From positions 1 through 30,216 of the IMG/VR virus record IMGVR_UViG_3300038461_000310: a DNA stretch of 30,216 bases; one strand, 5' to 3'. This DNA is from a virus (Duplodnaviria; Caudoviricetes). The position numbers and the translations under genes are program-made. This document shows, in pieces, positions 1 to 27,361 of the stretch. The notes under the pieces are model-generated. The model had not been told where the DNA came from and searched no databases. It saw nothing but the letters and a program-made list of their open reading frames with translations. How positions within the stretch are numbered: position 1 is the first letter of the stretch; each line of letters begins with the position of its first letter.

Positions 1-69
1 CGACAAACGGAATGTGGGCTGGACAAAGCAAGCACCTTTCAATGTCATCATCTTTAACCATGTGGTCAT
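1..69 (-). CDS. 5' end of a hypothetical protein running off the window (MTTWLKMMTLKGACFVQPTFRLS...)
   Basis: ATG at 69 preceded by GAAAGGA, 30 nt after the stop of the 2074-aa gene; open to the window edge. Confidence 0.5.
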   Translation of the reverse strand, partial: MTTWLKMMTLKGACFVQPTFRLS

Positions 70-99
70 TTTGTCCTTTCGTGGCCTTTTTATTCTATC

Positions 100-6324: not shown

Positions 6325-6335
6325 TGTCTGCCTCC

Positions 6336-8456: not shown

Positions 8457-8467
8457 AAGAAGCCCCC

Positions 8468-9343
8468 TTATCCTCCCTGATTGATGTTAATTCGCGTTTC
8501 TACGGATGCGGACACACTTTCGCTTTCGCTGATGCTGGTTGACACGGAAGCGCCCAGATTTTCGTTAGCTGAAACGTGGGCCCCAAGACTCACGTTCAGG
8601 TTCATCATGGCGATTGCCGATGCCGCCAGCCGGGCATGAGCTTCGACAAAGGCCACCCCCTTGCCGTGCAATAGCTTTGCCGCCTCAATCGCAGCCTGGA
8701 GGACAACCTGGGCTTTCTGGATGGATACGGATGCCCGGGTCTTGGCCGCTTCCAGGGAACGGGTCTGGAGGGCATCGTAGAGTTTGGACATCATGTTTTC
8801 GATCTCCAGGGCCTTCGTCCATGCGAACTGCTTCCCCTGCCAGTAGAGGTCGGCCCTCTTCAGGGAGATGTCTCGGTTCACGCTGGAAATCTTTTGAGCT
8901 GAGGCCTCCACCGTCCGCTCAATCGCCTTATTGAGGACTCCGGGAGGTACGGGGAACCCGCTCACGGCGAACTGCCGCTTGACCTCTTCCGTGCCCGCTT
9001 GCGCGTTCACCTGCTCCCGGTCCCTCTCCCGGTTCCACAGGTCGGCTTCATCCTGGGGTTCCAGGCCGTACACCCCGTTCTCGATCTCATCGGCCACCTT
9101 TGCGGCCACCTGGCTTTCCAAAGCGGAGGAATAGAGGGTATCGGTCGGAGCGGTGAAGTCCTCCATCGCCGGGACGGTGATCGTCGGATCTTCGATCGTC
9201 CCAAGAAGGCCGAGGAGTTGGTTCACCAGGGACAGGGATTGATTGATGATGGTGTAGGCGTCCTGCTCCATCGTGTCCCATTCGGGCTGGAACGATTTGG
9301 TTATGGCATCGACATTGAATCCTCCCAGGCTGACGGTGCTCAT
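8468..9343 (-). CDS. Putative internal virion protein, 291 aa
   Basis: GGAGG RBS; helical protein with 'LWNRERDRE...FAVSGFPVPPG' segment of a kind seen in phage virion proteins; synteny. Confidence 0.6.
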   Translation of the reverse strand: MSTVSLGGFNVDAITKSFQPEWDTMEQDAYTIINQSLSLVNQLLGLLGTIEDPTITVPAMEDFTAPTDTLYSSALESQVAAKVADEIENGVYGLEPQDEADLWNRERDREQVNAQAGTEEVKRQFAVSGFPVPPGVLNKAIERTVEASAQKISSVNRDISLKRADLYWQGKQFAWTKALEIENMMSKLYDALQTRSLEAAKTRASVSIQKAQVVLQAAIEAAKLLHGKGVAFVEAHARLAASAIAMMNLNVSLGAHVSANENLGASVSTSISESESVSASVETRININQGG

Positions 9344-12522: not shown

Positions 12523-13812
12523 TTATGATGAGCTCGAAGAGCTGCTACTGGATGAACTGGAACGGCTTGAACTGGAGGAGCTGGACGAGCTCCCCCCTGA
12601 CTGCTTCAAGCCAATGATCAGCTGGTTAAGACCCATCTCCTCCCTCAAAAGAGCCGTCCCGGACACAGACTCCGGGGGCATCCATTTACTCCAGGTCAGA
12701 TTTTGCAGATGGCCGCCGTCGAGTCCCATGTGAACCCCGTCGCTCGCCAGCCACATATACCCCCAGATCTTTTCCTGTCCTTGCGAGAGGTCGATGATGG
12801 TCTGCGTCCCCTCGATCGCCCCCCAGATCGTTTTGACGATCCTCTTGCTCGGCTTATCGGGGTCCTCCATCTGCCAGAAGATCGTTTCCTTCTTTGTGGA
12901 AATCCATATCCCGTCCCGCACGGGAGCCAGAAGGGTAATCCGGCCATCGAAGGGGATGTAGTTGTGAGCCAGGTTCGTCAGCTCGTAGGAGTAGGGCTCC
13001 GTGTACCAGAGGACATCGTTCGAGGCGATGTAGATCCTGCCGTTGTAATACTTGATGATATGGCCGGGACCGGGAGGATTCAGGAATTGAGTGATCAGCG
13101 GTACGTTGAACGACTTCGTATCTCCTCCGTAAATAGCTTCAGTGGTGCCGTTGGGAACGCTCATTGCGCGGTAGAGCCTCTCGCCATTGGGCGTGGAAAG
13201 GTAGATGTTCACCCAAGCAACCAAAGGATCGGGGGATGGCTGGATTCCCGTGATGTAAACCCCTCCCCTGGTTGTGAGGGTGATCTGTACCGACCCCAGG
13301 GCACCGCTTTCCTGCCCGTCCGTTTTCATGTAGGTCATCGCGCACCGGTAAATACCTGGCGGCATGGAGCCAGATACTCGCGCAATCAAGGGTTGGGGAG
13401 GAGTGCCAACCCCCCAGCCCCATGCCGTCAGGCCGTCGGTAATACCGGTGATCAGTTCATCCGAAAAATATATTTTGTCGAAAATCTTCTCGAAGGCCAT
13501 TCTCTGATTAAGAGCCAGATCTCCCCGGAGCGTGGTAGCGGACATATCCGGATTCAGTCTCCGGAGATCTCTGTCTTCCCGGAAGAGGACCGGGCCCTTG
13601 TCGCTCCAGAGTGAATGAACATTCCCGGAGTAAATACTCTTGTATCCCTTCCGCCTTCGGGCATCCAGGTTCCGGTCGATGTCGATGTTCATGGCTTTCT
13701 GCAGCTCTCCCGGCTTGCAGCTCTCCGGCCGGTCCAGGATATTCAGGCCGGTGAAATCGTCGATGTTCTGCTCGCTGGTGCTCTTCGGCTTCAATTTTTT
13801 AACGTAGGCCAT
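12523..13812 (-). CDS. Putative tail nozzle / tail tubular protein with C-terminal poly-Ser tail, 429 aa
   Basis: Start revised to ATG 13812 (GGAGG RBS, TAATG overlap with upstream gene). 'FTGLN...AMNIDID...RRRKGY' and 'YNGRIYIA...LWYTEP' beta-propeller-like motifs. Last 22 aa are nearly all Ser. Confidence 0.65.
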   Translation of the reverse strand: MAYVKKLKPKSTSEQNIDDFTGLNILDRPESCKPGELQKAMNIDIDRNLDARRRKGYKSIYSGNVHSLWSDKGPVLFREDRDLRRLNPDMSATTLRGDLALNQRMAFEKIFDKIYFSDELITGITDGLTAWGWGVGTPPQPLIARVSGSMPPGIYRCAMTYMKTDGQESGALGSVQITLTTRGGVYITGIQPSPDPLVAWVNIYLSTPNGERLYRAMSVPNGTTEAIYGGDTKSFNVPLITQFLNPPGPGHIIKYYNGRIYIASNDVLWYTEPYSYELTNLAHNYIPFDGRITLLAPVRDGIWISTKKETIFWQMEDPDKPSKRIVKTIWGAIEGTQTIIDLSQGQEKIWGYMWLASDGVHMGLDGGHLQNLTWSKWMPPESVSGTALLREEMGLNQLIIGLKQSGGSSSSSSSSSRSSSSSSSSSSSS

Positions 13813-14147
13813 TAAATCCCCTCCTCCCTCACCTGGACCAGGACATCCCATTCCCTTTCGTAGTTCGGCAGCCCGGTCTTCGCAAAAATAACCCTTCCTT
13901 TCAAAAAGTAATCCAGGCCGTCCGTTCCCCCCTTCACCGTGACCTTCAGGAATTGGGAATCGTTCGTGGGAGATCCCTCGATCATGGTGGAGGACCGATC
14001 AACGCCCTCCGAATCCACCATGGAGAAGCTATAAGAACTCAGGGCGTAGCCGGCATAGGTCGGGTTATTTACAAGCCAGTCGTACCGGAAGCGAAGGGTT
14101 TTTTGGTCTGCCGGAGCCTTGGTATAGGGTACTTCATTCCAGGTCAT
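13812..14147 (-). CDS. Putative fiber-tail adaptor protein, 111 aa
   Basis: GGAGG RBS; 'KAPADQKTLRFRYDW...VTVKGGTDGLDY' resembles small Ig-like phage adaptor proteins. Confidence 0.55.
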   Translation of the reverse strand: MTWNEVPYTKAPADQKTLRFRYDWLVNNPTYAGYALSSYSFSMVDSEGVDRSSTMIEGSPTNDSQFLKVTVKGGTDGLDYFLKGRVIFAKTGLPNYEREWDVLVQVREEGI

Positions 14148-14159
14148 GATCAGCCTCCG

Positions 14160-14549
14160 TCAATTTTTCCTGAGAGGGCCAATGGGCGCAATCGGCCTGA
14201 ACTCTACTTTCCATGCCCCTGCTGTTGTCCCGTCTGAAAGCACAGAGCATGTTGAATCCGTGGATAAACAGTAATCGCTGGTCGTAGTGTCTGCCAGGAC
14301 CGCTCTCACTTTTATGGTGAATCTCCCCGATCTCGGTCTGGGAATGACCAACTGCGTGTTCGAAGTCCCATAGGTATAGGTTTCTCCGGTATCCCGAACC
14401 AGGGTCACTTCATAGTGATCTATCGTATAGGAAACGGCATCCCAAGCGACCTGTGTTGTTCCCGGGGTGGCAACATAATTCACCTGCCCAAATAGAAAGC
14501 CTGGTAGGCTCGCCAGGATGAACACCAATATTCCCAAGTATTTTCTCAT
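14160..14549 (-). CDS. Fibronectin type III-like protein with N-terminal signal peptide, 129 aa
   Basis: MRKYLGILVFILASLPGFLFG hydrophobic leader; 'VAWDAV...HYEV...FTIKVRAV' FN3 pattern. Confidence 0.65.
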   Translation of the reverse strand: MRKYLGILVFILASLPGFLFGQVNYVATPGTTQVAWDAVSYTIDHYEVTLVRDTGETYTYGTSNTQLVIPRPRSGRFTIKVRAVLADTTTSDYCLSTDSTCSVLSDGTTAGAWKVEFRPIAPIGPLRKN

Positions 14550-14557
14550 GCCTGCCC

Positions 14558-17179
14558 TCAGAAAGTCAAAGAACCCGTGGTTAAGAGCGATTCTACGCCG
14601 GTATCATCCACGCTGGTCACGGCAAAGTTGATTGTTCCGATCAGCGCGGGAGTGTGGGCCAGGGGGATCGTGCATTGAGTGACGATGCCGAGCTGGTCAT
14701 ACGGCGTATCATAGTCCGGAACGTCCGGGTCCGCAAGCGCCCGCACCCGGACGGCCACGATGTCAAGGTCGTCTTCGGGAAGATCCCATGAAAGGGTATA
14801 CGTTAAAGTCGAAGCGGAAGAGCTTGAGCTGGAGCTCGAATACGAAGACGAAGAACTTGAGCTTGAAGATGAAAAGCTGGATGAGCTTGAACTCGATGAA
14901 GAGTTGGATTGCGAAGAAGAGCTCAAGGACATGGATGAGCTGGATAGTGAAGAGGAGCTCAAGGACAGGCTCGAAGAGCTGGAGCTAGAAACGGACGAGC
15001 TCGATGAACTCGACACGCTGGAACTCGAAGACGAGGATACGGATGACGAACTGGAAGAGCTGAAAGAGCTGGACTGAGATGATGAGCTCGAAGAGCTGAA
15101 CGATCCGGAGCTTGAACTGGAACTGGAAAACGAATAATTCGCGTAGAGCTGGAAATACGGGAACGAAACATTGAAGGTCCCGAACCTTCTTTTCTTTATG
15201 GGGGGATCCGGTAATGGAAGCTCAAACTCATAGAATTTCTTCCACTCCTCCGCCCGTGCGGATGGAACGTGGTTCACCCCGGCGATAAAGTCTTCGACCT
15301 GATCGGGGATATGGGGGATGTGAAAATCAACCTGGGATGAGGACCAGGAAGATGAAGAAGAGCTGCTCGAACTCCATGAAGACGACGAAGAGGATGAGGA
15401 CATCGAGGAGCTGCTACTCGAACTCGAAGAAAAAGACTGAGACGAGGAGCTGGAGGACGAACTCGAAAAGGAGGAGCTACTGCTCGAAAAGCTCGAACTC
15501 GAAGACGAGAACGACGAGCTTGAGCTTGAAGATGAGCTGGACAGCGAGGAACTGGAACTCGATGAAGACCTTGAGGATGAAGACGATCTGGACGAACTCG
15601 AAAACGAAGATGAGCTGAAACTCGAAGACGAGGAAAGGCTGGATGAGCTAGAGCTCGATGAAGACGAACGGCTGGAAGAAGAACTGGAAGATGAACTTGA
15701 TACCGATGAACTGGAGGACCGCGATGAAGACGAAGAGCTGAAACTTGAACTGGAAAAAGAGGATGAAGACGAGCTTGAGAAGGAAGACGAACTCGACCGT
15801 GAACTGGAAGAAAAGCTCGAACTGGAAAAAGAGGATGACGAACTGGATAGGCTTGAGGATGATGAACTGGACGAAGCCCCGGCTTCATAGAGGGCCGCGA
15901 TATCGGCATCCGATAGAATCCGGTTGTAAATGCGGACTTCATCGAGATCCCCGCGGGGAGCGCGGGCGATGGTGTAGTCATTACCTATCCTGAAGGTTGA
16001 GGTATTTCCAGATACCGATCCGGAGCCAATGGTGTCGCCGTCCAGGGCGGTGAGCAGAACGCCATCCGCATATAATTTGCAGACGCCGGTATCATAGGAA
16101 TAGGCCAGGGCAAAATGGTGCCAGCCGGTGCTCAGATTCCCCAGGCTTTTGTAATGATCCCCATATACCGCGCTCCACCGGTCGAAATCCCCGACAAGAT
16201 AAACCGGACCCCCATTATAGGTGCTCAAATACATCCGGTCGCCAGCCGTGCCCGCGCCGCTCTGACCCTTGGACATAAGCATTTGGATGGCGGTATCTCC
16301 CTGAGAGAGGAGATGGAACCAGCAGGCGAAAGTCATGTAGGTCAGGTTGTCGATCGCCGCATAGTGGGGAACGCCGAGGTTGTCGGTTGTCCCCAGATCC
16401 ATCCTTACGGCGTTGCCAACCTTCCCCGTGACGGATTTATTCGTTGCTCCTTCATTCGAGGAGAAATTCGCGGTATTACCGTTTCCCAGACCGTCCGCCA
16501 GGGTAGCGCCATTGTTGGCCGGGCTGTCATCCAGGGGCCAGTAGCCGACGAGGCCCGTGGTGTAATCCGGGGGGCCGGTACTCGATGAGCTTGAAGATGA
16601 GAACGAGGAGGAAGAAGAACTCGACTTCGATGAACTGGAGGATGAAGCGGAAGAAACGCTTGAACTGCTTGAGCTGGAAGAGCTCGGGGCCTCGGTGTTG
16701 ACCTCTATGGCATCGATTACCCGATGGTAGCAGGGGGAATATCCGTCGGGCTGGGGATAAACCAAAGTGTCGTCATCCGAGGTCTGTTTGATGGACGCCG
16801 TACCAGAGAAGGCGTAACTCCATCCCACTTTCGCTGGATTGAGAAAAGCGAAGTGAAAAGAATATCCCTTTGTCATATCAAAAACAAAAGGAATCCAGTC
16901 TGACCACTTATCAACGCCGGCGGAAACGGAGAACCCCGGGTTGCCGCCGTCGAAGGTAATGCGCGTGGGTGTGGCCGCAAAGTCCGGGGCGGTCCCCGTT
17001 TCTCCTATCGATGCGCCGCTGACCTCTACGGCAGTGAACGGTTCGGCCGGGAAGTGAACGCGAATTTGCAGTCCGCTGTATGCGAAGTCGGCGGGGTACA
17101 GACAGTTCCTAATATTATAGGGATTGGCTTGCTCCGTCTGGGCGGGAAGAGTGGTTGACCATGTGGTTTGGATGGACAC
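14558..17179 (-). CDS. Poly-serine virion appendage/fiber protein with LamG (ConA-like) domain and C-terminal FN3-like domain, 873 aa
   Basis: LamG signatures 'GLVGYWPLDD', 'GKVGNA', 'WHHFALAY', 'GDLDEVRIYNRILSDADIAALY'; Ser tracts of ~35, ~180 and ~108 aa; AAGGA RBS. Confidence 0.8.
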   Translation of the reverse strand: MSIQTTWSTTLPAQTEQANPYNIRNCLYPADFAYSGLQIRVHFPAEPFTAVEVSGASIGETGTAPDFAATPTRITFDGGNPGFSVSAGVDKWSDWIPFVFDMTKGYSFHFAFLNPAKVGWSYAFSGTASIKQTSDDDTLVYPQPDGYSPCYHRVIDAIEVNTEAPSSSSSSSSSVSSASSSSSSKSSSSSSSFSSSSSSSTGPPDYTTGLVGYWPLDDSPANNGATLADGLGNGNTANFSSNEGATNKSVTGKVGNAVRMDLGTTDNLGVPHYAAIDNLTYMTFACWFHLLSQGDTAIQMLMSKGQSGAGTAGDRMYLSTYNGGPVYLVGDFDRWSAVYGDHYKSLGNLSTGWHHFALAYSYDTGVCKLYADGVLLTALDGDTIGSGSVSGNTSTFRIGNDYTIARAPRGDLDEVRIYNRILSDADIAALYEAGASSSSSSSSLSSSSSSFSSSSFSSSSRSSSSSFSSSSSSSFSSSSFSSSSSSRSSSSSVSSSSSSSSSSRSSSSSSSSSSLSSSSSFSSSSFSSSSRSSSSSRSSSSSSSSLSSSSSSSSSSFSSSSSSFSSSSSSFSSSSSSSSSQSFSSSSSSSSSMSSSSSSSSWSSSSSSSSSWSSSQVDFHIPHIPDQVEDFIAGVNHVPSARAEEWKKFYEFELPLPDPPIKKRRFGTFNVSFPYFQLYANYSFSSSSSSSGSFSSSSSSSQSSSFSSSSSSSVSSSSSSSVSSSSSSSVSSSSSSSLSLSSSSLSSSSMSLSSSSQSNSSSSSSSSSFSSSSSSSSSSYSSSSSSSSASTLTYTLSWDLPEDDLDIVAVRVRALADPDVPDYDTPYDQLGIVTQCTIPLAHTPALIGTINFAVTSVDDTGVESLLTTGSLTF
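14810..15133 (-). repeat. Poly-Ser coding tract 3 (~108 codons)
   Basis: Mixed TCN/AGY codons with isolated F/V/L/M/Q/Y interruptions. Confidence 0.9.
15335..15874 (-). repeat. Poly-Ser coding tract 2 (~180 codons)
   Basis: Mixed TCN/AGY codons with isolated F/R/L/V/W/M interruptions. Confidence 0.9.
16580..16684 (-). repeat. Poly-Ser coding tract 1 (~35 codons)
   Basis: Linker between the N-terminal beta domain and LamG. Confidence 0.85.
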
Positions 17180-17192
17180 GAGATTTCCTTAA

Positions 17193-17354
17193 TTATTCTT
17201 TATTCTCTTCGCCGGATGATCCATTTTCTTTCTTCACGGCGGTTGCCACTCGGACCCCCCACGGGTAACTGGACATCAATGGACTCCGGCGCATTTCTTT
17301 TTCCTCAACTAATTTTCTGACAAGCTCTTTTAGAAGATGATTCTGATCAATCAA
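17193..17354 (-). CDS. Small hypothetical protein (~53 aa, TTG start)
   Basis: TTGA overlap with the stop of 17351..17740; fills the gap before the poly-Ser gene; 3' part of the 169-aa track ORF. Confidence 0.35.
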   Translation of the reverse strand: MIDQNHLLKELVRKLVEEKEMRRSPLMSSYPWGVRVATAVKKENGSSGEENKE

Positions 17355-17740
17355 GTCTTTCTCGTATTCTGATCGCTGGTGTGCGGAGACCCAGCATCCG
17401 GAGTCGTCTGAATATCCAGGAGAAACAGAATCTCCATTTCCAGAGGACGGTATTCCTCTTTTGCCAGATTCCTGAGCTTCGTTAAAAGATCCTGATACTC
17501 GGAGAAGTCTAGGGTTATCAGCCCTTCTTGGGGTGGAATCGCTCCCTTCCTTGGTTTTCGGGGCTTTGTTTTCCGGGGCTCCTGGCTCCGGGAGCCTCGC
17601 ACCCTGGTCATCAGGGCGCTGGAGCACTCCTGGCAGAGTCCTCGGCTTGCCCCATCTGTCCGGATAAGGGCGGGCTTGTCGGGGTGGTTTTTGCATCTCC
17701 AACCTCCTTCCGGGGGATTGTTTTTCCTTGAGGCTCTCAT
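17351..17740 (-). CDS. Hypothetical protein with CxxH...CxxC putative zinc finger, 129 aa
   Basis: Purine-rich RBS (GAGGAAGGGA); 'CKNHPDK...GLCQEC', basic linker and helical C-terminus. Confidence 0.6.
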   Translation of the reverse strand: MRASRKNNPPEGGWRCKNHPDKPALIRTDGASRGLCQECSSALMTRVRGSRSQEPRKTKPRKPRKGAIPPQEGLITLDFSEYQDLLTKLRNLAKEEYRPLEMEILFLLDIQTTPDAGSPHTSDQNTRKT

Positions 17741-17757
17741 TCCCTTCCTCTCTTCCT

Positions 17758-18561
17758 CTAAGAATCGAGGTTTTTAAGCCAGTCCCTTACGCCGCCATCC
17801 TGATAATTCTTGAGGTCGAAGGTCTGAATCTTCTCGTGAGTGAATCTCTCCACAGGAATCTCTCTCTGTAGGAAAGCAATCCGCTCATGCGGCATCGTTG
17901 CCATCGCACAATGGAAGTTTCCGGAGACCACCCCGATGAAGGCCCCGCAGGCCCCCAGGAGTCCCAGAAGGGTCGATACCCGCGGCGTGACCCGGCGAAC
18001 CGAGCAGTCCACGAAATCGAATTTCTGGTTTACGGGATTATGGAAGATGTGCTCAAAATGTGACTCTATAGGAATCCATCCAGCCGCGAGGATCTCGGAC
18101 CATATCTTTTTGGCAACGTCCTCCGGGCAATTTGCCAGATCAGGCAAGCACGTTATGTTCCAATGGACCGCGCACAGCTTACTCGGGAACTTCGGAAGAG
18201 GCTTGTACTCGATAGCCGGTGGAGAAATGCCCAATTCCTCCTTGCAGCACAGCTCCGCCTTGGTGAGGCCGGGGACCTCCACCGGGAAGTGGATCAGAGC
18301 CGTCAGGTCGTATCCCTCCTCGATGTTTTTGAGGTCCCCGAGAAGAATGGCTTCAGGGTAAATCGTCTCTTCATCCAGCCCTTTGCAAAACCCCAGGTCA
18401 AAATGGATGCCGGGGTATAATTCCTTCAGCTTATCGAAAAGGGGCAGGAACATCACTTGATCCCCCAGGCCGTGCCAACTAACGATGAGGACCTTTTTGA
18501 AGGTCCCCTCGTCCAGATAGGCAGCCAGCTTCTTTTCTTGCTTCCCCGGTTCTATGATCAT
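17758..18561 (-). CDS. Glycosyltransferase, GT9 (heptosyltransferase-like, GT-B fold), 267 aa
   Basis: 'KKVLIVSWHGLGDQVMFLP' and 'LLGACGAFIGVVSGNFHCAMA' match GT9 N- and C-terminal motifs. Confidence 0.8.
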   Translation of the reverse strand: MIIEPGKQEKKLAAYLDEGTFKKVLIVSWHGLGDQVMFLPLFDKLKELYPGIHFDLGFCKGLDEETIYPEAILLGDLKNIEEGYDLTALIHFPVEVPGLTKAELCCKEELGISPPAIEYKPLPKFPSKLCAVHWNITCLPDLANCPEDVAKKIWSEILAAGWIPIESHFEHIFHNPVNQKFDFVDCSVRRVTPRVSTLLGLLGACGAFIGVVSGNFHCAMATMPHERIAFLQREIPVERFTHEKIQTFDLKNYQDGGVRDWLKNLDS

Positions 18562-18718
18562 TTTTCGAAACCCCTTCTATAAATTTATGGCACAAACAAT
18601 ATTCTCTTGGCTGTGAGTATGAATTATGCCACCAACACATTCCCTTGCTATTATTGTGCATTTCTTTTCCGTGCCCACACTCTGCACATTTTTCTTGCTT
18701 CCCGGGTTCTATTATCAT
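18479..18718 (-). CDS. Small Cys/His-rich protein (79 aa) inserted ahead of the GT9 gene
   Basis: ATGA overlap with the upstream stop; 'CAECGH...H...C...CLC'; AT-rich; first 10 codons duplicate those of the GT9 gene. Confidence 0.45.
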   Translation of the reverse strand: MIIEPGKQEKCAECGHGKEMHNNSKGMCWWHNSYSQPREYCLCHKFIEGVSKNDHRTGEARKEAGCLSGRGDLQKGPHR

Positions 18719-19368
18719 CTTCGCACCGCCCATGCTGTTCCTTTGCCAGCCTCATCCCGATACCAGGAGAACTCATTTAGGTGCTTATCTTGGAAAGCAT
18801 TGAGAGCTGGTTTCAGGTCAAATCCATCTGATTGCACGGTAGCCGAAATATCGTCCACGAGGAGTACTCCTCCTGTGGCCAGAAGATCGACCACGTTTTC
18901 CAGGTCTTCCGTGAGAACCTCAACCGAGTGGCCCCCATCGCACAAGATGTAATCGAACAGGTCGGTATTCCCCTGCTTGAAGGCGGGGACGGTCTTCCTG
19001 GAATCACCAATGTAGAACTCAACGAACCCCGTGGGGATGGCCAGGTGCTCAAGGTGCTTCCTCACCAGATCCGGGCATGAGAGGCCATCATCGAACAGAT
19101 CGAACAGGCAGACTCGGAGGCCGCTGAAGTCCTGGTAAGCGGAAAGAAGGGCCGCGATGGAGAGTCCCGTTCGGGTTCCTATTTCCATGATCCTCATCGG
19201 ATGATGAGTAGCTCCCCATTGGAAGGCTAGTGCGTGAATATCGAAGAAATTATCGCCCCATTTTTTGTAGTGAGTCTGATAATTAAGGACGTAGGTGTCA
19301 CGGGGAGTGACTTTATTTAATACCCGCAGGTTGTGAAAGACCATGGCCGTGAGCAGTTTTTTATCCAT
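18715..19368 (-). CDS. Class I SAM-dependent methyltransferase (Methyltransf_24-like), 217 aa
   Basis: 'IMEIGTRTGLS', 'GDS', 'FDYILCDGGHS', 'GGVLLVDD'. Confidence 0.85.
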   Translation of the reverse strand: MDKKLLTAMVFHNLRVLNKVTPRDTYVLNYQTHYKKWGDNFFDIHALAFQWGATHHPMRIMEIGTRTGLSIAALLSAYQDFSGLRVCLFDLFDDGLSCPDLVRKHLEHLAIPTGFVEFYIGDSRKTVPAFKQGNTDLFDYILCDGGHSVEVLTEDLENVVDLLATGGVLLVDDISATVQSDGFDLKPALNAFQDKHLNEFSWYRDEAGKGTAWAVRR

Positions 19369-20275
19369 CGATCTTCACCTTGTACTCGGCCATCTTCTTC
19401 ACATAGTCCACGAGGAAGGCCAGGCAGTTCCGAGCCAGGGCCTTGCAGGTTTCCGAGCCGTTCAGCTCCCGGTCGATCATCTTGAGCTGTCCGTCAAGCT
19501 GCCATCCCTGCCACACGGAACTTAAAAATTGTCCGTGAAGAACGAACAGCTCCTCCCCGTTCACCGTCCACAGGTTCCCGTGCATCTCGCAGACGTGGGA
19601 GCAGGGCTTGAGCAGGGTCTCATGGAGGCCGGACCAGGTGGCTTCGGCCAGGGCGATGACCCTGTTCTGGTATCCGAATTTCATAATGGATAGATTTACC
19701 GAATCCATGTCGGGGCCGCGGAATCGCCGCTCAGGAGGATAGTCCGCAAAGATCTTCCAGGAGAAGACAAAGGCATCCGAAAACTTCGGAGAGTAAAAAA
19801 GAGGAGAGCAGCAGATGTCCTTTTCGTTCCAGGTCTTCGGTAGAATATGCTTTCCATCTACTTTGTGGTGCTCCTCAAATCCCTCTCCGTATGTCCTCTT
19901 TTGCTCCAATCCACAGCCGATTATCACATCCGCCTTATCCGCAATTTCAAACCAGATATCCAAATTGCGAATGATGCAGGAATCGGCGTCCAGGACACAG
20001 ATCGCATCGTACTCCACGTCCAGGAGGGCGTAGCGGTAGCGCATGAGCACTTCGCCCTCACCGAGCGCCTGCATCTCTGGGATACCCGAAACCTCGTGGA
20101 CGATGACCCGGTATCCGAGTTGATCGAGCTTGGCCAGGTACTTCGCCGGCAGGGCCCAAGAGATCAGGTGAACGTCCTGCTTGTTCCCCACCTTCTCCAG
20201 GCTGTTCAGAAGGACGTTCAGCGGGGGCAGGTACTTCTCGTTCGCCGCCACGACGAAGGCGTATTTACTCTTCAT
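19361..20275 (-). CDS. Glycosyltransferase, GT-A fold (GT8-like), 304 aa
   Basis: Start revised to ATG 20275, overlapping the upstream stop; 'AANEKYLPPLNVLLNSL' and DxD in 'YDAICVLDADSCI'. Confidence 0.75.
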   Translation of the reverse strand: MKSKYAFVVAANEKYLPPLNVLLNSLEKVGNKQDVHLISWALPAKYLAKLDQLGYRVIVHEVSGIPEMQALGEGEVLMRYRYALLDVEYDAICVLDADSCIIRNLDIWFEIADKADVIIGCGLEQKRTYGEGFEEHHKVDGKHILPKTWNEKDICCSPLFYSPKFSDAFVFSWKIFADYPPERRFRGPDMDSVNLSIMKFGYQNRVIALAEATWSGLHETLLKPCSHVCEMHGNLWTVNGEELFVLHGQFLSSVWQGWQLDGQLKMIDRELNGSETCKALARNCLAFLVDYVKKMAEYKVKIDG

Positions 20276-20786
20276 ACTCTCGCCACCAGCACCAGTCGTC
20301 TCCTTGTTTGACATCACCAATCTCCTCCTCCACGGCTTTCTTTGTATCGTCGAGCTGCCAGTCATGGCCGCCCATAATCGCCCGCTTCTTGAGTTTTCCT
20401 TTCCAGAAGCGCATATCTCTCTTTTGCTGTTCGTATCTATGGTCCCCATCCACCCAAACGAAGTCCAGGGGTTCCCGGACCGCTTCCAGGGCATCATCCG
20501 AAGTCATCCGGAGGACGATGCACCTTCCTTCGTCTATGAAGCTCTGAAGCCGCTTGACGGCCTCCAGGTAGTTCGCATCATGGTACGGCTGGGGCTCTTC
20601 CGCTTCATACAGATGCCCGGTAAAGTGCTTCCATGGGTCGATGCAGTACAGCTTCAGTTTCGGCATCCGGGCCAGCATGGAGTAGCTTCCGGAGGCCCCT
20701 TGGATTCCGATCTCGGCCCCCACAACGGGAACATCCCCAAAGAAGGGGATCAAGATTCGCTCAGGGAGGAAGATGTTCTGGTTCAT
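20265..20786 (-). CDS. Class I SAM-dependent methyltransferase (Methyltransf_24-like), 173 aa
   Basis: 'GAEIGIQGASGS', 'LYCIDPW', 'LDFVWVDGDHRYE', 'IMGGHDW'; ATGA overlap. Confidence 0.85.
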   Translation of the reverse strand: MNQNIFLPERILIPFFGDVPVVGAEIGIQGASGSYSMLARMPKLKLYCIDPWKHFTGHLYEAEEPQPYHDANYLEAVKRLQSFIDEGRCIVLRMTSDDALEAVREPLDFVWVDGDHRYEQQKRDMRFWKGKLKKRAIMGGHDWQLDDTKKAVEEEIGDVKQGDDWCWWREYEE

Positions 20787-21748
20787 TCCGGGGGTCCTTG
20801 CACGAGGTAGTCCACGTCCTCGATATTTGCTCTCAACTTCACTTTCCAGGTTTCGTTGAAAAGCCGATACATCCCGAAGGCCACACGGGTATTCTCCGCC
20901 AGCATACTCTTGAGGGGGTCTTTCGCGTCGGGGTGCTCCGTAACCCCTTTTATGAACCCCTTCGAATACCAGCAGCCATGCAGCATTTTAAGGCGCAGGT
21001 TCTCAGGGAGGTTGAGAAGGTAGGTCTTGCCATTACTCATCTTGATATCTCTCACTGGAGAGGTCAGGAAGGCGTGTTCCAGCCATTCTATGTCGTTCAG
21101 GAGAACCACCCGGTCCTTTTTCTTTAGGTAGTGGACCGCGTACCCCAGGGCTCTCATTTCATGGAATTCCGGGGTTTCGAAGATGATCTTCTTGAGGATG
21201 TAGTCCACCACGTCGGCCCACTTCAGGGGTTCCCAAAGCCAGGGGGAAGGCCAGATCGGGAAGACCGTGGGGGATACCGCCGGGTCAAAGTTCTCCAGGA
21301 AGGTTCCATGGAAGGAGTGCCACGCGGTGACCAGGAGGCCGGTCCCCTCCACCATCTTGAACCAAGGGGTCAGGTCCTCGAGTAAAAGGCAATCCGCCTG
21401 GATAACCCCCGTTACTTTGTACCGGTCCTTCAGCATGAAGGGGTAATAGACGAACCCGAAGACCACGGGCCAGTCTTGGGCTTGCCAGTATTTCCAGTCC
21501 TTGAACTCTTGCGGGACCGTCTGGATCATCTCTTCGATATCAACCAGCTCCAGGCGGTAATTGAGATCGGCCTCCTGAATCTTCTGGATCCACCAGGCGG
21601 GCATTCCCCGATGAACCAGGTGAAGATCTATTTTGCTCCCGTGGTAATCGAGGGCGTTGATGACTGCGTTGGTCCCGGGCAGGTATCTCGTCCCGCAGCA
21701 GAAGAGGGTGAAGGCAAAGTCTGATTTGGGCTTACCGTTTGTCCACAT
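20783..21748 (-). CDS. Glycosyltransferase, GT-A fold (GT8-like), 321 aa
   Basis: N-terminus 'RYLPGTNAVINALD..G.K.D.HL' aligns by eye with the 304-aa GT; degenerate DxD 'VIQADCLL'. Confidence 0.6.
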   Translation of the reverse strand: MWTNGKPKSDFAFTLFCCGTRYLPGTNAVINALDYHGSKIDLHLVHRGMPAWWIQKIQEADLNYRLELVDIEEMIQTVPQEFKDWKYWQAQDWPVVFGFVYYPFMLKDRYKVTGVIQADCLLLEDLTPWFKMVEGTGLLVTAWHSFHGTFLENFDPAVSPTVFPIWPSPWLWEPLKWADVVDYILKKIIFETPEFHEMRALGYAVHYLKKKDRVVLLNDIEWLEHAFLTSPVRDIKMSNGKTYLLNLPENLRLKMLHGCWYSKGFIKGVTEHPDAKDPLKSMLAENTRVAFGMYRLFNETWKVKLRANIEDVDYLVQGPPE

Positions 21749-21751
21749 GGT

Positions 21752-22663
21752 TCACCGCATCCTCGTAAGGTTCAGCCGGCCGCCCTGGTAGTACATTTTC
21801 ACGGCATCCACGATCGTGTTGGGTTGGATCAGAGTGAAGCAGTGTGGAGTGCCGTAGACCAGATCATCACAGGACCCCTTCACGCCGCCTTTCCAACATC
21901 CATCCCACATGCAGCACTTCAGGGCGCCGTTCGTGTAGATGTACCTCCCATGGGGATAGATATGCCACCGGACCCCTTCCTTCCCGGCCGCCAGGACAAC
22001 GTGGGGCTGTTCAAAGGCCGCGCTGATTACGAATTGGAGGGAAAGAGGGCCGATGCTTCCATGGGACCACCAGGCGAGCCGGATGAGTTGGCGGAGGTCG
22101 GTCTTCCCCACCAGATTGTAAACTCCGTCGAGGACGTGGTGCAGGTGGCCAAGGTGGCCGATCTGAACGAGGCGGATGGCCCCCCCGAAGTAATCGTTGA
22201 ACCGATCCACCACTTCCTGCCAACGGTGATACTGCTTCAGCTCATTATCCTGTTTTCTTCCAGCGTTGATGAGCCAGAATCCCCCGGTCCAGCCGAATTC
22301 TACTTCCACCTGGTTTATCCAGTGGGCCTCTTCATCGGAGACGTAAAGCTCGGGCCGGATTCCGGTCTTCTTGATCTTGACGCCCAGCTTCTTTTCGATG
22401 TCATGTCTGAAGGCATCCGTAAAGTGGTGCCCCCTCCACCCGCTCTCGTGGATCTCATCGTAGGAGATATCAAACTTCTCAACGTCGGGGTCTTTGTCGT
22501 CCAGGGGGGTGAGACGGGGGTTATGCTCCCAGATTTCGGGGCAGGGGCTTCGCACGTCGATCTGATAGTCCGGGTAAGACTCTTTCAGGTCTCCCACGGC
22601 CCGGGTCATGGTCAGGATGTCTCCGGGAGATTGACGTTGAGAGAGGATTATCTTTCGGCTCAT
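21752..22663 (-). CDS. Glycosyltransferase, GT9 (heptosyltransferase-like) with C-terminal Cys cluster, 303 aa
   Basis: 'SPGDILTMTRAV..LK..YP', 'NLVGKTDLRQLIRL', 'ISAAFEQPHVVL', 'CCMWDGCW...C...C'. Confidence 0.85.
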   Translation of the reverse strand: MSRKIILSQRQSPGDILTMTRAVGDLKESYPDYQIDVRSPCPEIWEHNPRLTPLDDKDPDVEKFDISYDEIHESGWRGHHFTDAFRHDIEKKLGVKIKKTGIRPELYVSDEEAHWINQVEVEFGWTGGFWLINAGRKQDNELKQYHRWQEVVDRFNDYFGGAIRLVQIGHLGHLHHVLDGVYNLVGKTDLRQLIRLAWWSHGSIGPLSLQFVISAAFEQPHVVLAAGKEGVRWHIYPHGRYIYTNGALKCCMWDGCWKGGVKGSCDDLVYGTPHCFTLIQPNTIVDAVKMYYQGGRLNLTRMR

Positions 22664-23167
22664 TTAACCCCCGAAGAGGAAAGAGTGGATGTCTTTCCTG
22701 GGAGGACATTCTGGAGTACCACTTCTCATAGCGGCAAAACCATAGTTTGCAAAGAGAGAGCGAATTGATTTTTGGGTGAAGTAATGCAGATGCTCCCCGG
22801 GCTTAAAATGTTTAGACTCCATAAGCTCGCCCTCTATAATAGGAACGGATACGGCTACGTTTCTGGCAAGAGCGAGGATAGGTTCGATCATTCTAAAGTC
22901 CGGTAGATGTTCCAAAACATCCCAAAAGCAAACCACGTCATACATCATCAGTTTTATTCCCGTCTGCGGGAAGTTCCCGATATCGTAGGTGTATACCTCC
23001 ACCCCAGAAGGACGGTAGGCTCTGAACCACCCCACCCCCGATCCATAGTCCAGAACGGTTTTGGGGTGTACGAAATCAACCCAATTCCATCGAAGCCGAC
23101 AAATCTCTTCCGCTGTTGCGCTGTTCTGCCGGAGCATCTTCTCAAAGTACTCCAGGTCGTACTCCAT
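22664..23167 (-). CDS. Class I SAM-dependent methyltransferase, 167 aa
   Basis: 'VLDYGSGVGWF', 'YDVVCFWDVLEHL', 'EHLHYFT'; AGGAGG RBS. Confidence 0.85.
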   Translation of the reverse strand: MEYDLEYFEKMLRQNSATAEEICRLRWNWVDFVHPKTVLDYGSGVGWFRAYRPSGVEVYTYDIGNFPQTGIKLMMYDVVCFWDVLEHLPDFRMIEPILALARNVAVSVPIIEGELMESKHFKPGEHLHYFTQKSIRSLFANYGFAAMRSGTPECPPRKDIHSFLFGG

Positions 23168-23187
23168 TTCCTCCTCCTCTACTTGTT

Positions 23188-24096
23188 TTATAGTGACCCG
23201 AAATCGGGCCGGGCGACAACTTCAGACCATCTCAGGTTGTCTTTGGCTGCTCGTGCTTTGAGCTTGTTATGCTCGAATATTTCCCCATGCTCCATGGAGG
23301 CCTTGGGGTCCAGGGTGTCCGCATCTTTCTTCAGGTAGGCCTCCCGCATGATCCCGTCCACCAATTTGATGTGATCCTCCGTGCGCATCTCCGGGCTCTG
23401 GGTATCCATGCCGGTAGCCGTTAAGGCTGCTCCCAGGCGGGTCACGGTCAGATAAAGGGTGTCGATCACCTTTCGGATGACTCCGGCCGAGGCGGTCTCG
23501 TCGGTGATGTCTTCCAGGACCGTGAAGGAATCGGCGGTCGCAGTGACCACCGTGAAGGTCGCGGGGATGATATCGGTCCCGTTTGAAGTCGTCCCGGAGA
23601 TCACAACCTCATCGCCGGCAGAAAGGGTGCCGGAGAACTTCGCGCCCGTCTGTGAGATGCTGTTGTCGGAAGCGGTGAAGACGAAGGCTTTGGAAAAGTA
23701 CCCCAGGGAAGGATCGGGAAATCTCACCACCCGGATTTTCCCGGAATCATAATCCGGGACCATGTATTCGACCGTCCCCGTGGCATACTTCCAATCCAAA
23801 ATGAATTGGCTCAGCCAGATATCGCTCTTCACCTTCACGTCTTTCTTGGCCGTGAAAAGTCGCCCATAGCGGACTTCCGTTATTTGGGGGTGAAGGGCGT
23901 AGGTGGGCTGATTGCAGAGGATGGGAATTTGGATGATTGCAGGAGTGGAATCGTCAAGGATGCAACCGGACTCCTTGACCCACTCGTTATATGCCTGATT
24001 CAGATAAAGCAAAAGCTCCCAGGATTCCCAGAGGAAGGGAGCTTTCGTGTCTTGAAGCCTTTCCCTTGAGAGGGAAAGGATATCGCTCGTAATCAT
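23188..24096 (-). CDS. Head-tail adaptor (tail tubular protein A-like) with inserted beta domain, 302 aa
   Basis: 'RERLQD...FLWESWELLLYLNQAYNEW' N-terminus, 'DHIKLVDGIMREAYLKKDADT' C-terminus, Thr/Ser/Val-rich insert ~23470-23700; synteny after the capsid genes. Confidence 0.7.
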   Translation of the reverse strand: MITSDILSLSRERLQDTKAPFLWESWELLLYLNQAYNEWVKESGCILDDSTPAIIQIPILCNQPTYALHPQITEVRYGRLFTAKKDVKVKSDIWLSQFILDWKYATGTVEYMVPDYDSGKIRVVRFPDPSLGYFSKAFVFTASDNSISQTGAKFSGTLSAGDEVVISGTTSNGTDIIPATFTVVTATADSFTVLEDITDETASAGVIRKVIDTLYLTVTRLGAALTATGMDTQSPEMRTEDHIKLVDGIMREAYLKKDADTLDPKASMEHGEIFEHNKLKARAAKDNLRWSEVVARPDFGSL

Positions 24097-24107
24097 GGCG
24101 TCCCCCT

Positions 24108-24144
24108 AAACAGGGGGAGCCCGGATAGGCCCCCCCCTTTTTTT
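24108..24144 (-). terminator. Putative intrinsic terminator, possibly bidirectional
   Basis: Minus strand A7-GGGGGGGGCC-UAUCCG-GGCUCCCCC-UGUUU; on the plus strand the hairpin is followed by T7. Confidence 0.6.
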
Positions 24145-24165
24145 ATCGTGTTAGAGCTTCCCTGC

Positions 24166-24585
24166 TTATGTCCCGCTGCTCGAAGAGCTGCTGCTCCGAG
24201 AAGAAGAGCTGCTGCTGATAGAGCTTGAGCTGGAGCTGAACGAGCTGGAACTCGACACGCTGGAGGACGAAGAACTGCTGCTCATGGAACTGGAAGAGCT
24301 GCTCCGGGAACTGGAACTCGAGGAGCTGCTCTCAAGGATCTGCCCAAACTGACAGGAGGTTGAATTACCGATATTGAAGGAGAACTGCCCGGTATCCGTA
24401 CAGATATACAGGCATCCGGTGGCGTACCCGGCCTTATTGACCGGCATGTTCGCATAGGTCCCCATAGCCAAAAGGACATGGTGCTTTTGCGTTTGGATAA
24501 GGCGCCATACATTGCCACTCTCCATGTCCTTCGAACCTTCGAGGGTCAAAACTCCTACTGACCAGTCTTGTCTCCGTGATGGCAT
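24166..24585 (-). CDS. Small virion (head-associated) protein with 52-aa C-terminal poly-Ser tail, 139 aa
   Basis: AGGAG RBS; 'AGYATGCLYICTDTG...NIG' motif typical of small phage fiber/decoration modules; Ser tract 24175-24330. Confidence 0.75.
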   Translation of the reverse strand: MPSRRQDWSVGVLTLEGSKDMESGNVWRLIQTQKHHVLLAMGTYANMPVNKAGYATGCLYICTDTGQFSFNIGNSTSCQFGQILESSSSSSSSRSSSSSSMSSSSSSSSVSSSSSFSSSSSSISSSSSSRSSSSSSSGT

Positions 24586-25202: not shown

Positions 25203-26051
25203 TTAACTCAGGGTCGGCTGGGCGTAGACCATGCCGATCGCTGAGGGTTTGATCACTTTGCGGCCGAACACATGCAGACTCTTAATGAACCGACCGAAGG
25301 TGGTCTCGGGGTTGTCGATGTAATTCGTCTCCGTGAACTGAGAGGCGAAGGTCAACCCGTATTTGTGGCCAAAGAGGCAGTAGAAGCACAGCTTCCCGGT
25401 TGTGGTGTCCACCCCGGCCGTCCCCGGTCCCTTCGGGAGAAGGTTGGAGGCGTAGAGGGTGAAGTTGAGCAGCCGGCCCAGGCGTCCGCTTCGGAGGGTG
25501 CTGGTCGCGTCCCCCATCATCGAAGCGTCTTTGATGTCGGAGGTCTTGAGCAGCATGGCCATGACTCTCGGCATGACGAAGAACCACTCATCATCGTCCG
25601 GGACGTTCTGCTCGCCCAGGACCGCTTCGCACATGGCCAGCAATTTGATGATGTTCGAAGTGGTGACTTCGTAGGGCGCACCCACGGTCCCCAGGTCGTA
25701 CAGACCGGAGATGACTCCCGCGTTGGACCCGTAGTTGTTGGAATCGGGGAGAGCGGTGGAGTAGGGCGATTGGCCGCAGAAGTAGGCGAGAACATCGGTG
25801 TCGATCTTAACCTTCTCGTTCTTCGTGGCGTTGTCCGCCCATTGGGACATCAGATTGATGTCGCTCTGGTACTTGTCGATGGAATCGATCCCGAAATAGA
25901 AGTGCGTGCATTGGTCGATGTACAGGGTCATCGCCGGGGATTCGATTCTGTCGGGGGGCTTTAACACCCCGCCTTTCTGGTATTCGTTGAGGTACACCGG
26001 CACGTCGCCCTCTGTGCGGATCTCCACTTGGGACCCCATACCCTTGATATC
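25203..26051 (-). CDS. Major capsid protein, exon 2 (282 aa; spliced product 333 aa)
   Basis: Begins DIKGMGSQVEIRT; 'LYIDQ..FYFGIDSIDKYQSDINLM', 'GRLGRLLNFTLYASNLLP', 'FGRFIKSLHVFGRKVIKP' are HK97-fold (P22 coat-like) capsid motifs. Confidence 0.9.
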   Translation of the reverse strand, partial: DIKGMGSQVEIRTEGDVPVYLNEYQKGGVLKPPDRIESPAMTLYIDQCTHFYFGIDSIDKYQSDINLMSQWADNATKNEKVKIDTDVLAYFCGQSPYSTALPDSNNYGSNAGVISGLYDLGTVGAPYEVTTSNIIKLLAMCEAVLGEQNVPDDDEWFFVMPRVMAMLLKTSDIKDASMMGDATSTLRSGRLGRLLNFTLYASNLLPKGPGTAGVDTTTGKLCFYCLFGHKYGLTFASQFTETNYIDNPETTFGRFIKSLHVFGRKVIKPSAIGMVYAQPTLS

Positions 26052-26132
26052 CGAAAATTCACTGTTATCGGCAGGCTCTTTATCCTGCCTTCTGTGTCTT
26101 TCAACACAGTCCAGACTATATCTTCTTTTTGC

Positions 26133-26161
26133 TTGACACCAAAATCGACTTCTGGTACCAT
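26133..26161 (+). promoter_or_regulatory. Sigma70-type promoter for the intron HNH gene (leaderless)
   Basis: TTGACA (26133-26138), 17-nt spacer, extended -10 TGn-TACCAT (26156-26161), ATG at 26169, no Shine-Dalgarno. Confidence 0.75.
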
Positions 26162-26168
26162 ACCTTTC

Positions 26169-26978
26169 ATGCGTAGAACGGTGCCGATAGAAAAGGTGAG
26201 AAAACTTTCTGATTCCGGTTTGTGTGCTAAAGAAATCGCTGACAAACTCGGATTTAATCCGCACACTATTCACCGTATCGGCAGAGAACACGGCTTTGTC
26301 GTTGCTCGCTCCACGGTCGTTTCTTTCACAAAAGAATCGTTGGATAACGAGTACAGACGGTATAAGACCGTCCATGAAATCGCCCGCCGACATAATGTGA
26401 GTAACGCCACCATTCTTCGACACATGAAGATCCTTGGTATCAAATCCAACAGGAAGTTGGTTTCCTTCACCGAGGAGGAGTTGCAAAGGGAATACAGCCA
26501 AACTCGCTCTTCGTTGAAGATCTCTCGTAAATTTGGAGTGAGTAAAATCACCGTGCTTCGATGGATGAGAAAGTTCGGCATCGGGCGAAAGGTCAGGGTT
26601 GCCCCCGTAGAACAGGTTAGAGAACTTTCGCTGAAAGGTCTTTCTGCATCCGAAATCGCAGCCGAGATCGGATTTACGGCCAATTATATTTGTGAGCTTG
26701 GCAGAAGAGAGAACATTCTCATCCCGGACAAGTTCCATCCGGGATACGCCTTTAAACACAAATATATCATGGTCCGAAAGCCCGATCATCCTTTTGCGGA
26801 TTGCAAAGGATACGTTATGGCGCATCGGCTTGTCATGGAAACGAAGCTCGGTAGGTATCTCACGCCCGACGAGGTTGTCCATCATATCAACGGAATCACT
26901 ACGGATAACCGTCCTGAGAACTTGCAGGTGATGGACAGGTCCTCTCACTCCAAAATCCCCAAATTCCGGAGTCATTAA
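26169..26978 (+). CDS. Intron-encoded HNH homing endonuclease with ~4 N-terminal HTH repeats, 269 aa
   Basis: HTH-like units (AKEIADKLGFNPHTI, VHEIARRHNVSNATI, SLKISRKFGVSKITV, ASEIAAEIGFTANYI); HNH_3-like 'AHRLVMETKLGRYL...VVHHING...DNRPENL'; lies exactly within the P8 loop. Confidence 0.9.
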   Translation: MRRTVPIEKVRKLSDSGLCAKEIADKLGFNPHTIHRIGREHGFVVARSTVVSFTKESLDNEYRRYKTVHEIARRHNVSNATILRHMKILGIKSNRKLVSFTEEELQREYSQTRSSLKISRKFGVSKITVLRWMRKFGIGRKVRVAPVEQVRELSLKGLSASEIAAEIGFTANYICELGRRENILIPDKFHPGYAFKHKYIMVRKPDHPFADCKGYVMAHRLVMETKLGRYLTPDEVVHHINGITTDNRPENLQVMDRSSHSKIPKFRSH

Positions 26979-27208: not shown

Positions 27209-27361
27209 ACCCTCGTAATTCGTGTTGGAGATATGGGTGAGGACGGTCGCGGCGTACCATCTTTTGACGAGCTGGGTGGACCACTTGGCGGGAACAAATT
27301 TGCTTAAACTGGTCGGCCCATAATCCGGATAGCCTACTGATCTGACAAACGATGTCGGCAT
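27209..27361 (-). CDS. Major capsid protein, exon 1 (51 aa)
   Basis: AAGGAG RBS, ATG at 27361; MPTSFVRSVGYPDYGPTSLSKFVPAKWSTQLVKRWYAATVLTHISNTNYEG matches the capsid N-terminal 'F.P..WS..L' motif; missed by the ORF track. Confidence 0.9.

Follow-up and report, generated by a model that had tools for sequence, protein, structure and literature searches.

Why should a tailed phage carry seven predicted sugar- and methyl-transferring enzymes inside its structural operon, amid predicted virion proteins bearing long runs of serine (Ser)? The question is raised by a 30,216-nt stretch of viral DNA (Duplodnaviria, Caudoviricetes; positions 1 to 30,216 of IMG/VR record IMGVR_UViG_3300038461_000310), the whole of which is referred to here as the window, in which three class I methyltransferases (MTs) and four glycosyltransferases (GTs), two of GT9 fold and two GT8-like, form a co-oriented block accompanied by three poly-Ser proteins. 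A computational follow-up of a preliminary description of this DNA makes it likely that the Ser tracts are glycosylated and that enzymes of the block take part.

Serine tracts and an enzyme block in one morphogenesis operon

The window comes from the genome of a tailed phage and is also contained in a 49.7-kb viral record that is 68% complete; all relevant genes occupy the minus strand as part of a morphogenesis operon. In order, these are the major capsid gene (phrog_267), genes for a 169-aa protein, a 139-aa protein and a structural phrog_399 protein, and then the seven enzyme genes, a 129-aa open reading frame (ORF), an 873-aa LamG protein, two small proteins, the head-closure protein Hc3 and further virion proteins. 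The features of interest are the following (SAM, S-adenosylmethionine).

24166..24585, minus strand: Ser-tailed 139-aa protein, second gene past the major capsid gene; predicted acceptor, assigned to the virion by position
23188..24096, minus strand: structural protein flanking the block, adaptor-like by position, without Ser tract (phrog_399, PHROG E 1.5e-9)
22664..23167, minus strand: MT1, class I SAM methyltransferase (Pfam Methyltransf_23)
21752..22663, minus strand: GT9a, 303-aa transferase of GT-B/GT9 fold (ESM Atlas, structure model and fold search)
20783..21748, minus strand: GT8a, GT8-like GT-A transferase, predicted chain extender (ESM Atlas 0.96; TM 0.65-0.69 to GT8 models)
20265..20786, minus strand: MT2, predicted sugar O-methyltransferase (Methyltransf_24, E 5.7e-13)
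19361..20275, minus strand: GT8b, second GT8-like transferase, with DAD motif (family profile; open frame reaches 20497)
18715..19368, minus strand: MT3, predicted sugar O-methyltransferase (Methyltransf_24, E 4.4e-15)
17758..18561, minus strand: GT9b, compact 267-aa GT9-like transferase with HGLGD motif (model and fold search, family profile)
14558..17179, minus strand: 873-aa fibre-like LamG protein, main predicted acceptor (Pfam LamG at residues 263-428, three Ser tracts)
12523..13812, minus strand: head-closure Hc3/nozzle protein with added C-terminal Ser tail, predicted acceptor (phrog_8040; open frame reaches 13851)

The seven co-oriented enzyme genes that the preliminary description had placed in the structural operon hold in both identity and coordinates. 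Its picture of a mostly abutting block running from adaptor to fibre is right for five of the intergenic gaps (0, 3, -4, -11 and -8 nt) and requires amendment at two places, namely a 153-nt gap, containing an 84-aa ORF, between MT3 and GT9b, and the non-enzyme 129-aa ORF (17351-17740) that separates the block from the fibre gene and found no match when loci of other phages were searched by tblastn. Small Cys/His-containing ORFs without family lie in or after the block at 17351-17740 and 18479-18733, both on the minus strand. Judged from its homologs, GT8b probably starts at 20275 rather than at 20497.

The three Ser-tract proteins are as first described. Residues 86-137 of the 139-aa protein contain 46 Ser in 52 aa (24330-24175); the three tracts of the LamG protein (residues 166-200, 436-615 and 683-790, or 35 + 180 + 108 = 323 aa) contain 277 Ser, out of 314 in all 873 residues; and the last 25 aa of the head-closure protein hold 22 Ser (12600-12526). 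An origin of these tracts in replication slippage or in faulty assembly is ruled out, since all six Ser codons are used in mixture, the 180-codon tract has no tandem period (best lagged DNA identity 0.46 vs a codon-shuffle mean of 0.48), and the same three tracts recur in a second assembly (locus L505). Periodicity below that of codon shuffles points instead to selection at the protein level.

The tails are an add-on to virion proteins. The protein described earlier as nozzle-like matches a head-closure family (phrog_8040, Hc3, E 5e-55), and four of its homologs, 75% identical, terminate exactly where the Ser tail of this phage begins; a comparison of the proteins themselves, gene neighbourhoods apart, found such a tail on none of 120 head-closure homologs, and just one of 150 homologs of the fibre N-terminal domain has a Ser tract. 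Together with the occurrence of tracts on many unrelated virion proteins, this supports the suggestion that poly-Ser is a portable tag. The 139-aa protein, previously taken for a head protein, retains its Ser tail, and is now assigned to head or virion only by its position, as it matches no Pfam or PHROG family and no homolog emerged from a homolog search.

Co-occurrence of poly-serine and glycosyltransferases

The principal evidence is a comparison of GT9a loci from the viral set (best 80 of 121 confirmed stretches, giving 56 clusters at 90% identity; L072 was left out of the clustering as its match had no assigned ORF) with control loci of the same structural clade, anchored on the head-closure gene of this phage (best 80 of 97 confirmed stretches, 60 clusters). 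With a poly-Ser ORF defined by at least 14 Ser in 20 residues, on the same strand and within the fetched locus, such ORFs were found in 41/56 GT9a clusters vs 0/60 control clusters (Fisher p 4e-19, uncorrected for kinship), and in 28/41 vs 0/28 when only loci of at least 15 kb were considered (p 1e-9, likewise uncorrected); 35 of the 56 GT9a clusters have at least 40 Ser. The 60 control clusters gave no tblastn match to any of the seven enzymes, and a weak methyltransferase profile match in two loci. Among the 15 GT9a clusters lacking a tract in the locus, six have Ser tracts elsewhere in the record, seven are fragments that are 19-49% complete, and two are the long-branch pair L074 and L080. 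All ten GT9a records that are at least 90% complete (8 clusters, among 40 records chosen) carry Ser tracts. Conversely, 50 longer control records contained neither GT9a nor GT2 over the cut-off and no real Ser tract, three of them having a single pattern match apiece, in every case interrupted by an in-frame stop. Genuine tracts do escape the whole-record Ser pattern (it gave no match in G106, G128, G131 and G132), so that zero counts in fragments prove little. A metagenome set of 80 loci, uncounted, mostly of short contigs and overlapping the viral set in part, follows the same pattern.

A contrast within one capsid family points in the same direction. A search with an alignment of the capsids from 12 GT9a loci yielded 69 loci, seeds included. 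Every one of the 32 near-clade loci with 1.5 kb or more of downstream sequence encodes a Ser-tailed protein behind the capsid gene, and 20/21 with at least 4 kb downstream have both a Ser tail and GT9a. In the sister group, whose capsids are 26-41% identical, 13/13 loci lack a tract and 7/7 lack both features, and nine loci encode a homolog of the carrier protein that ends without the tail. This is one strong contrast and not many. Neither comparison shows the independent distribution of poly-Ser and GT block among relatives that the preliminary description had considered.

Several families recur beside GT9a in the 56 clusters, including the GT8-like family (40), GT9b (31) and the MT families (18-28), of which MT1 (28/56) often lies immediately upstream of GT9a. 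In L005, a phage with a Mu-gpT-type capsid, homologs of all seven block genes are present at 33-73% identity, so the block moves between phage backbones, and GT9a recurs as the shared element in phages of at least three capsid types. Carrier proteins are varied. The non-Ser parts of 99 carrier segments include tail tube PF18906, the DUF2460 distal tail protein, cement/decoration PF09956, minor tail, LamG and F5/8-C fibre proteins, most parts having no family at all. Of 97 carrier ORFs, 57 have a last tract that runs to the ORF end (in some cases a contig end), a position in which it cannot be a linker.

Approached from the poly-Ser side, the association extends beyond GT9a. A scan with a mixed-codon DNA Ser pattern, picked for sensitivity on GT9a-locus tracts and hence biased towards them, gave at least 78 loci, and 24 of those among the matches listed have at least 100 Ser. 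Among these 24, six show block enzymes no more than 10 kb away, a further two have a GT9a gene in another part of the record, and GT2/GT4-type genes adjoin the tracts in four; of the 12 others, two or more have carrier families in common with complete GT9a phages, and L338 and L343 show no GT in the DNA examined. GT9a was present in 7/43 poly-Ser records searched. Poly-Ser phages without it include L325, with a GT2+GT4-type fusion between two poly-Ser genes, L351, with an overlapping GT2, L340 and L333 with GT2s, and L296 with a GT29. Poly-Ser thus tracks glycosyltransferases in general more than the GT9a family. A first scan with a TCN-only pattern had returned mostly TCN-only tracts or none, was read from the codon classes as the antisense of acidic regions, and was discarded except for L210 (506 Ser beside GT9a) and L183.

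The tracts themselves vary in composition and surroundings. An ORF of 973 aa (L435:4782-7703, G108) has 855 Ser in one tract and almost no folded domain. Cys is interspersed in the Ser tracts of L014 (positions 2-9229; 104 Cys, 1205 Ser), L015, L031 and L083, and Glu, His, Arg or Phe serve as spacers in other clades; such residues could act in cross-linking, S-glycosylation or charge tuning. A Sulfotransfer_3 gene adjoins a poly-Ser gene in L003 (5656-6330), and in L351 (13521-14885) an FkbM methyltransferase is fused to an N-terminus that, by eye, resembles Sulfotransfer_3.

Co-occurrence of this kind may also be read in another way, with the tracts as unmodified flexible spacers and the block as a remodeller of the host lipopolysaccharide (LPS) core or surface glycan, in superinfection exclusion or serotype conversion, the two being joined by linkage alone. 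GT9 and GT8 are classic LPS-core families, the internal tracts flank the LamG domain as linkers would, polyserine linkers are found in Saccharophagus carbohydrases, and L074 and L080 have GT9a without poly-Ser. We nevertheless regard this explanation as quite unlikely, because tails at free C-termini connect nothing, because co-occurrence persists where the tract genes are over 10 kb away from the block or stand next to another GT family, and because the block lies within a late morphogenesis operon, with no membrane protein or flippase predicted inside it. None of the block enzymes has a predicted membrane segment (the most hydrophobic stretch, in GT9b, is a helix-strand of the fold), which fits cytoplasmic substrates.

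Candidate enzymes, donor sugar and proposed scheme

Taken individually, the four GTs have no match in Pfam, PHROG or NCBIfam, and were assigned by ESM Atlas, by structure models with fold search and by family profiles. GT9a relates to PF01075 clusters (ESM Atlas 0.98), and its model (pLDDT 92; SPGD motif, D15) has as its top four fold matches the Veillonella GT9 enzyme 3tov (Z 23.9), WaaF (1psw, Z 21.1), TibC (4rap, Z 19.6) and WaaC (2h1f, Z 19.3), with root-mean-square deviations (rmsd) of 2.8-3.3 across 243-268 residues; below the GT9 structures come a plant NDH subunit (Z 16.9) and others at or below 11.5. The TibC superposition (TM 0.60-0.69, 259 residues, rmsd 3.0) starts from TibC residue 95, equivalent to model residue 1, so that the catalytic lobe stands at the protein start with no N-terminal beta-barrel. 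Four Cys (C250, C256, C265, C275) are invariant in 37 sequences, and the four-Cys pattern recurs in 45/56 cluster representatives, with a spacing of x5-x8-x9 vs x2-x15-x11 in TibC. Searches of PDB sequences with GT9a and its profile gave nothing significant. The family comprises at least 606 clusters at 90% identity, and GT9a, GT8b and GT9b are without a match among 50,697 isolated phage records. A search of 185,579 prokaryote genomes returned three matches (L082, L083 and L084), all contigs in metagenome-assembled genomes (Deltaproteobacteria, Ca. Anoxychlamydiales and WOR-3); one of the three shares flanks with a viral record, making them weak host clues.

For GT9b the fold search placed WaaC and TibC on top (E ~1e-6, TM just 0.34-0.40), and its profile matches PDB sequences weakly (3tov, E 0.003). 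GT8a (ESM Atlas features 0.96 to GT8) and GT8b belong to one family, the profile of which has 5gvv as its best PDB match (E 6e-7), followed weakly by glycogenin; DAD stands in the consensus, and PF01501 is matched by 10/45 members, the first window member not among them. According to these models, GT8a and GT8b have a GT-A fold with a DxD motif. MT2 partially matches a PHROG labelled DNA methyltransferase, and many phage GTs glycosylate hydroxymethyl-cytosine, according to the accessible portion of one study (bioRxiv 10.1101/2023.12.21.572611), so that hypermodification of phage DNA, with the Ser tracts unrelated, was also weighed. This we consider very improbable. The known pathways described there cluster with 5mYOX or ThyS genes, and Pfam/PHROG scans of the window proteins found no 5mYOX/TET or ThyS-type gene; a thymidylate-synthase-family gene occurs in just 2/18 GT9a records and 1/11 near-complete ones, and DNA modification would leave the poly-Ser link unexplained. 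A TET search, which matched 0/18 GT9a records, missed its own positive control as well and carries no weight here.

As to the donor, an HldE-kinase-like gene lies immediately upstream of GT9a in seven clusters, with an HldD-like epimerase nearby, and such a kinase occurs in 4/18 GT9a records. No heptose-pathway match was found in this phage's own record, 68% complete as noted, so the donor here would have to be supplied by the host or encoded in DNA beyond the record; E. coli is one ADP-heptose producer. Other decorations are suggested by the GT9a block of L029 (11726-15197), where genes resembling PEP (phosphoenolpyruvate) mutase, a split phosphonopyruvate decarboxylase and an Fe alcohol dehydrogenase accompany a CTP-transferase/LicD fusion that ends in a short Ser tract, all below the NCBIfam cut-offs; on this sequence evidence a phage-made phosphonate decoration of the glycan is possible.

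GT9a is, on its modelled structure, the best candidate for an initiating Ser O-heptosyltransferase, and the case that it begins the glycan with heptose is about evenly balanced. Late in infection, in the cytoplasm, it would place the first sugar, probably heptose from host ADP-heptose, on the Ser tracts, after which the glycan would be lengthened by GT9b together with the GT8-like pair, and O-methylated or capped by the three methyltransferases. In this scheme the tracts are a portable tag attachable to any surface protein, and under dense glycosylation they would become brushes and stalks that are extended, hydrated and resistant to proteases, the stalk holding the LamG domain off the particle and the brush on head and neck shielding the surface. 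Such a brush or shield can be put forward only tentatively as the main benefit of the coat.

Several observations weigh against glycosylation of the tracts by this route. The modelled GT9 fold matches WaaF, WaaC and TibC about equally and is not decisive between protein and LPS acceptors, WaaF and the Veillonella enzyme scoring as high as TibC or higher. The heptose-pathway matches of other clusters lie below curated cut-offs (182-312 bits vs 345, and 190-211 vs 274.6), to which the negative result for this phage's own record must be added. The link between poly-Ser and GT9a is not one-to-one, since other GT families stand beside some tracts and the divergent GT9a+GT9b pairs of L074 (82% complete, read whole) and L080 (54%) appear to lack poly-Ser; near-clade L465 carries three poly-Ser ORFs, yet 8.9 kb of its downstream sequence contains no GT9a; and just 12 of the 24 high-Ser loci among the matches listed show a GT in locus or record, the rest being mostly fragments. 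Finally, the GT9a clusters are kin, so that independent gains number far below 56, and linkage within a single operon can by itself yield co-occurrence. In L074 and L080 the divergent GT9a and GT9b genes stand amid many small fibre-like genes, and may use another acceptor.

Part of this evidence would suit a variant in which priming of the tracts falls to a host enzyme, or the tracts bear some different modification (for example a phospho-sugar or phosphonate), and the phage block just extends and decorates that glycan, GT9a being a WaaF-like sugar-to-sugar transferase. The good matches to WaaF and 3tov, the varied GT families beside poly-Ser in other phages, and the LicD-like and phosphonate-pathway-like genes of some blocks all fit. 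Against it stand the presence of GT9a as the common element across capsid types, the absence of any identified host enzyme, and the example of TibC, which shows in the consulted part of its description that the fold can use Ser directly (PMC4358343). Host priming is therefore judged unlikely, and priming by GT9a remains the preferred assignment.

Elsewhere in the window, a group I intron (27208-26052, minus strand; Rfam RF00028, 61.8 bits) interrupts the major capsid gene, and inside it an ORF for a helix-turn-helix (HTH)-HNH endonuclease (26028-26978) runs on the plus strand, opposite to the capsid gene; one U/G junction pair, with the exons ending at 27209 and 26051, fits an expected capsid motif and gives a 333-aa open frame. 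A 129-aa protein at 14160-14549 (minus strand) has a weak fibre-J/FN3-like match and a hydrophobic, signal-peptide-like N-terminus that is unusual within a virion operon. A 2074-aa protein (100-6324, minus strand), preceded by a Pro/Gly-rich 706-aa protein, contains a weak ParB-like stretch (phrog_1033, E 0.004) and is probably an ejection protein.

Relation to known systems and significance

The closest enzymatic parallel is found in the bacterial autotransporter heptosyltransferases (BAHTs; TibC and AAH, PDB 4RAP/4RB4). As far as the excerpted account of TibC goes, it heptosylates Ser and not Thr, and its four Cys form an iron finger (PMC4358343). GT9a shares the GT-B catalytic domain and four conserved Cys near the C-terminal lobe, and Ser O-heptosylation from ADP-heptose is the chemistry predicted for it. 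It differs in lacking the N-terminal beta-barrel (TibC 1-97), in Cys spacing and in its low identity (13-16%); a low-complexity stretch of Ser in virion proteins, rather than an autotransporter beta-helix, is the substrate predicted for it, and it is accompanied by extending GT8s and methyltransferases. BAHTs are dodecamers that act on autotransporters, and general Pfam/PHROG scans revealed no autotransporter in the window. Lacking the barrel, the system is not a BAHT member.

Glycosylation of streptococcal serine-rich repeat proteins involves GtfA/B and GlyE, and these systems combine GtfA/GtfB with the accessory SecA2/SecY2 and a cell-wall-anchored adhesin of SX repeats. Here too a Ser-rich acceptor is encoded beside several GTs, and 5gvv, the best solved match of the GT8 family profile, is S. 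pneumoniae GlyE according to the available part of one article (PMC10709319). In contrast to those systems, the tracts are near-pure Ser rather than alternating SX repeats and the substrates are predicted virion proteins, and neither GtfA/GtfB nor SecA2/SecY2 was matched by Pfam (28 window proteins) or NCBIfam (18). The phage system is not a serine-rich repeat system.

Mycobacteriophage virion glycosylation was reportedly described by Freeman et al. (2023, Cell Host Microbe). In the portions of two accounts that were available, phage GTs glycosylate capsid and tail-tube subunits at their C-termini, in what is described as a shield, with no mention of long Ser homopolymer tags or a GT9/heptose route (PMC11256854, PMC12619734). 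The predicted outcome here is similar, phage-encoded glycans on virion proteins, unlike in its enzymes, three of which are the ones unmatched in isolated phages. Chloroviruses also make a methylated capsid glycan with virus-encoded cytoplasmic GTs and a sugar O-methyltransferase, again as predicted here; they are eukaryotic giant viruses with an N-linked glycan on a folded capsid protein, and the part of the text at hand mentions no Ser tag (PMC7826918). WaaC and WaaF have the fold of GT9a and likely the same donor class, and differ in their acceptor, lipid A-Kdo, where the gene context here points to proteins. By analogy, the system is predicted to combine BAHT-like heptosylation with the successive use of several GTs known from serine-rich repeat adhesins, with an outcome as in mycobacteriophages and chloroviruses. 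The literature searched, most subscription journals and supplements lying outside it, contained no publication that deals with poly-Ser tags and phage GTs together.

Phage particles are usually regarded as bare protein, mycobacteriophages being the reported exception. We are evenly divided on a wider proposal, namely that tailed phages repeatedly evolved a poly-Ser tag and glycosyltransferase kit for a mucin-like coat, in which a short Ser run on any capsid, neck, tail or fibre protein (up to the 973-aa, 88%-Ser protein) is served by a phage GT9 Ser-heptosyltransferase or by convergent GT2/GT4 enzymes, the coat being diversified by methyl, sulfate, phosphonate or other groups. If glycosylation of the tracts is true, many uncultured phages of unrelated capsid types would wear heptose-based methylated glycans by means of a simple sequence tag, and ideas of how stable they are, how they adsorb and recognise hosts, and how proteomics detects them would change. 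A large enzyme family that lacks annotation and has no match in isolated phages would gain a function as well. On the wider proposal, phage particles would bear a widespread, unrecognised post-translational code and offer a ready tool for tag-directed O-glycosylation. A transferase that glycosylates any protein with a short Ser tail would be useful in glycoengineering.

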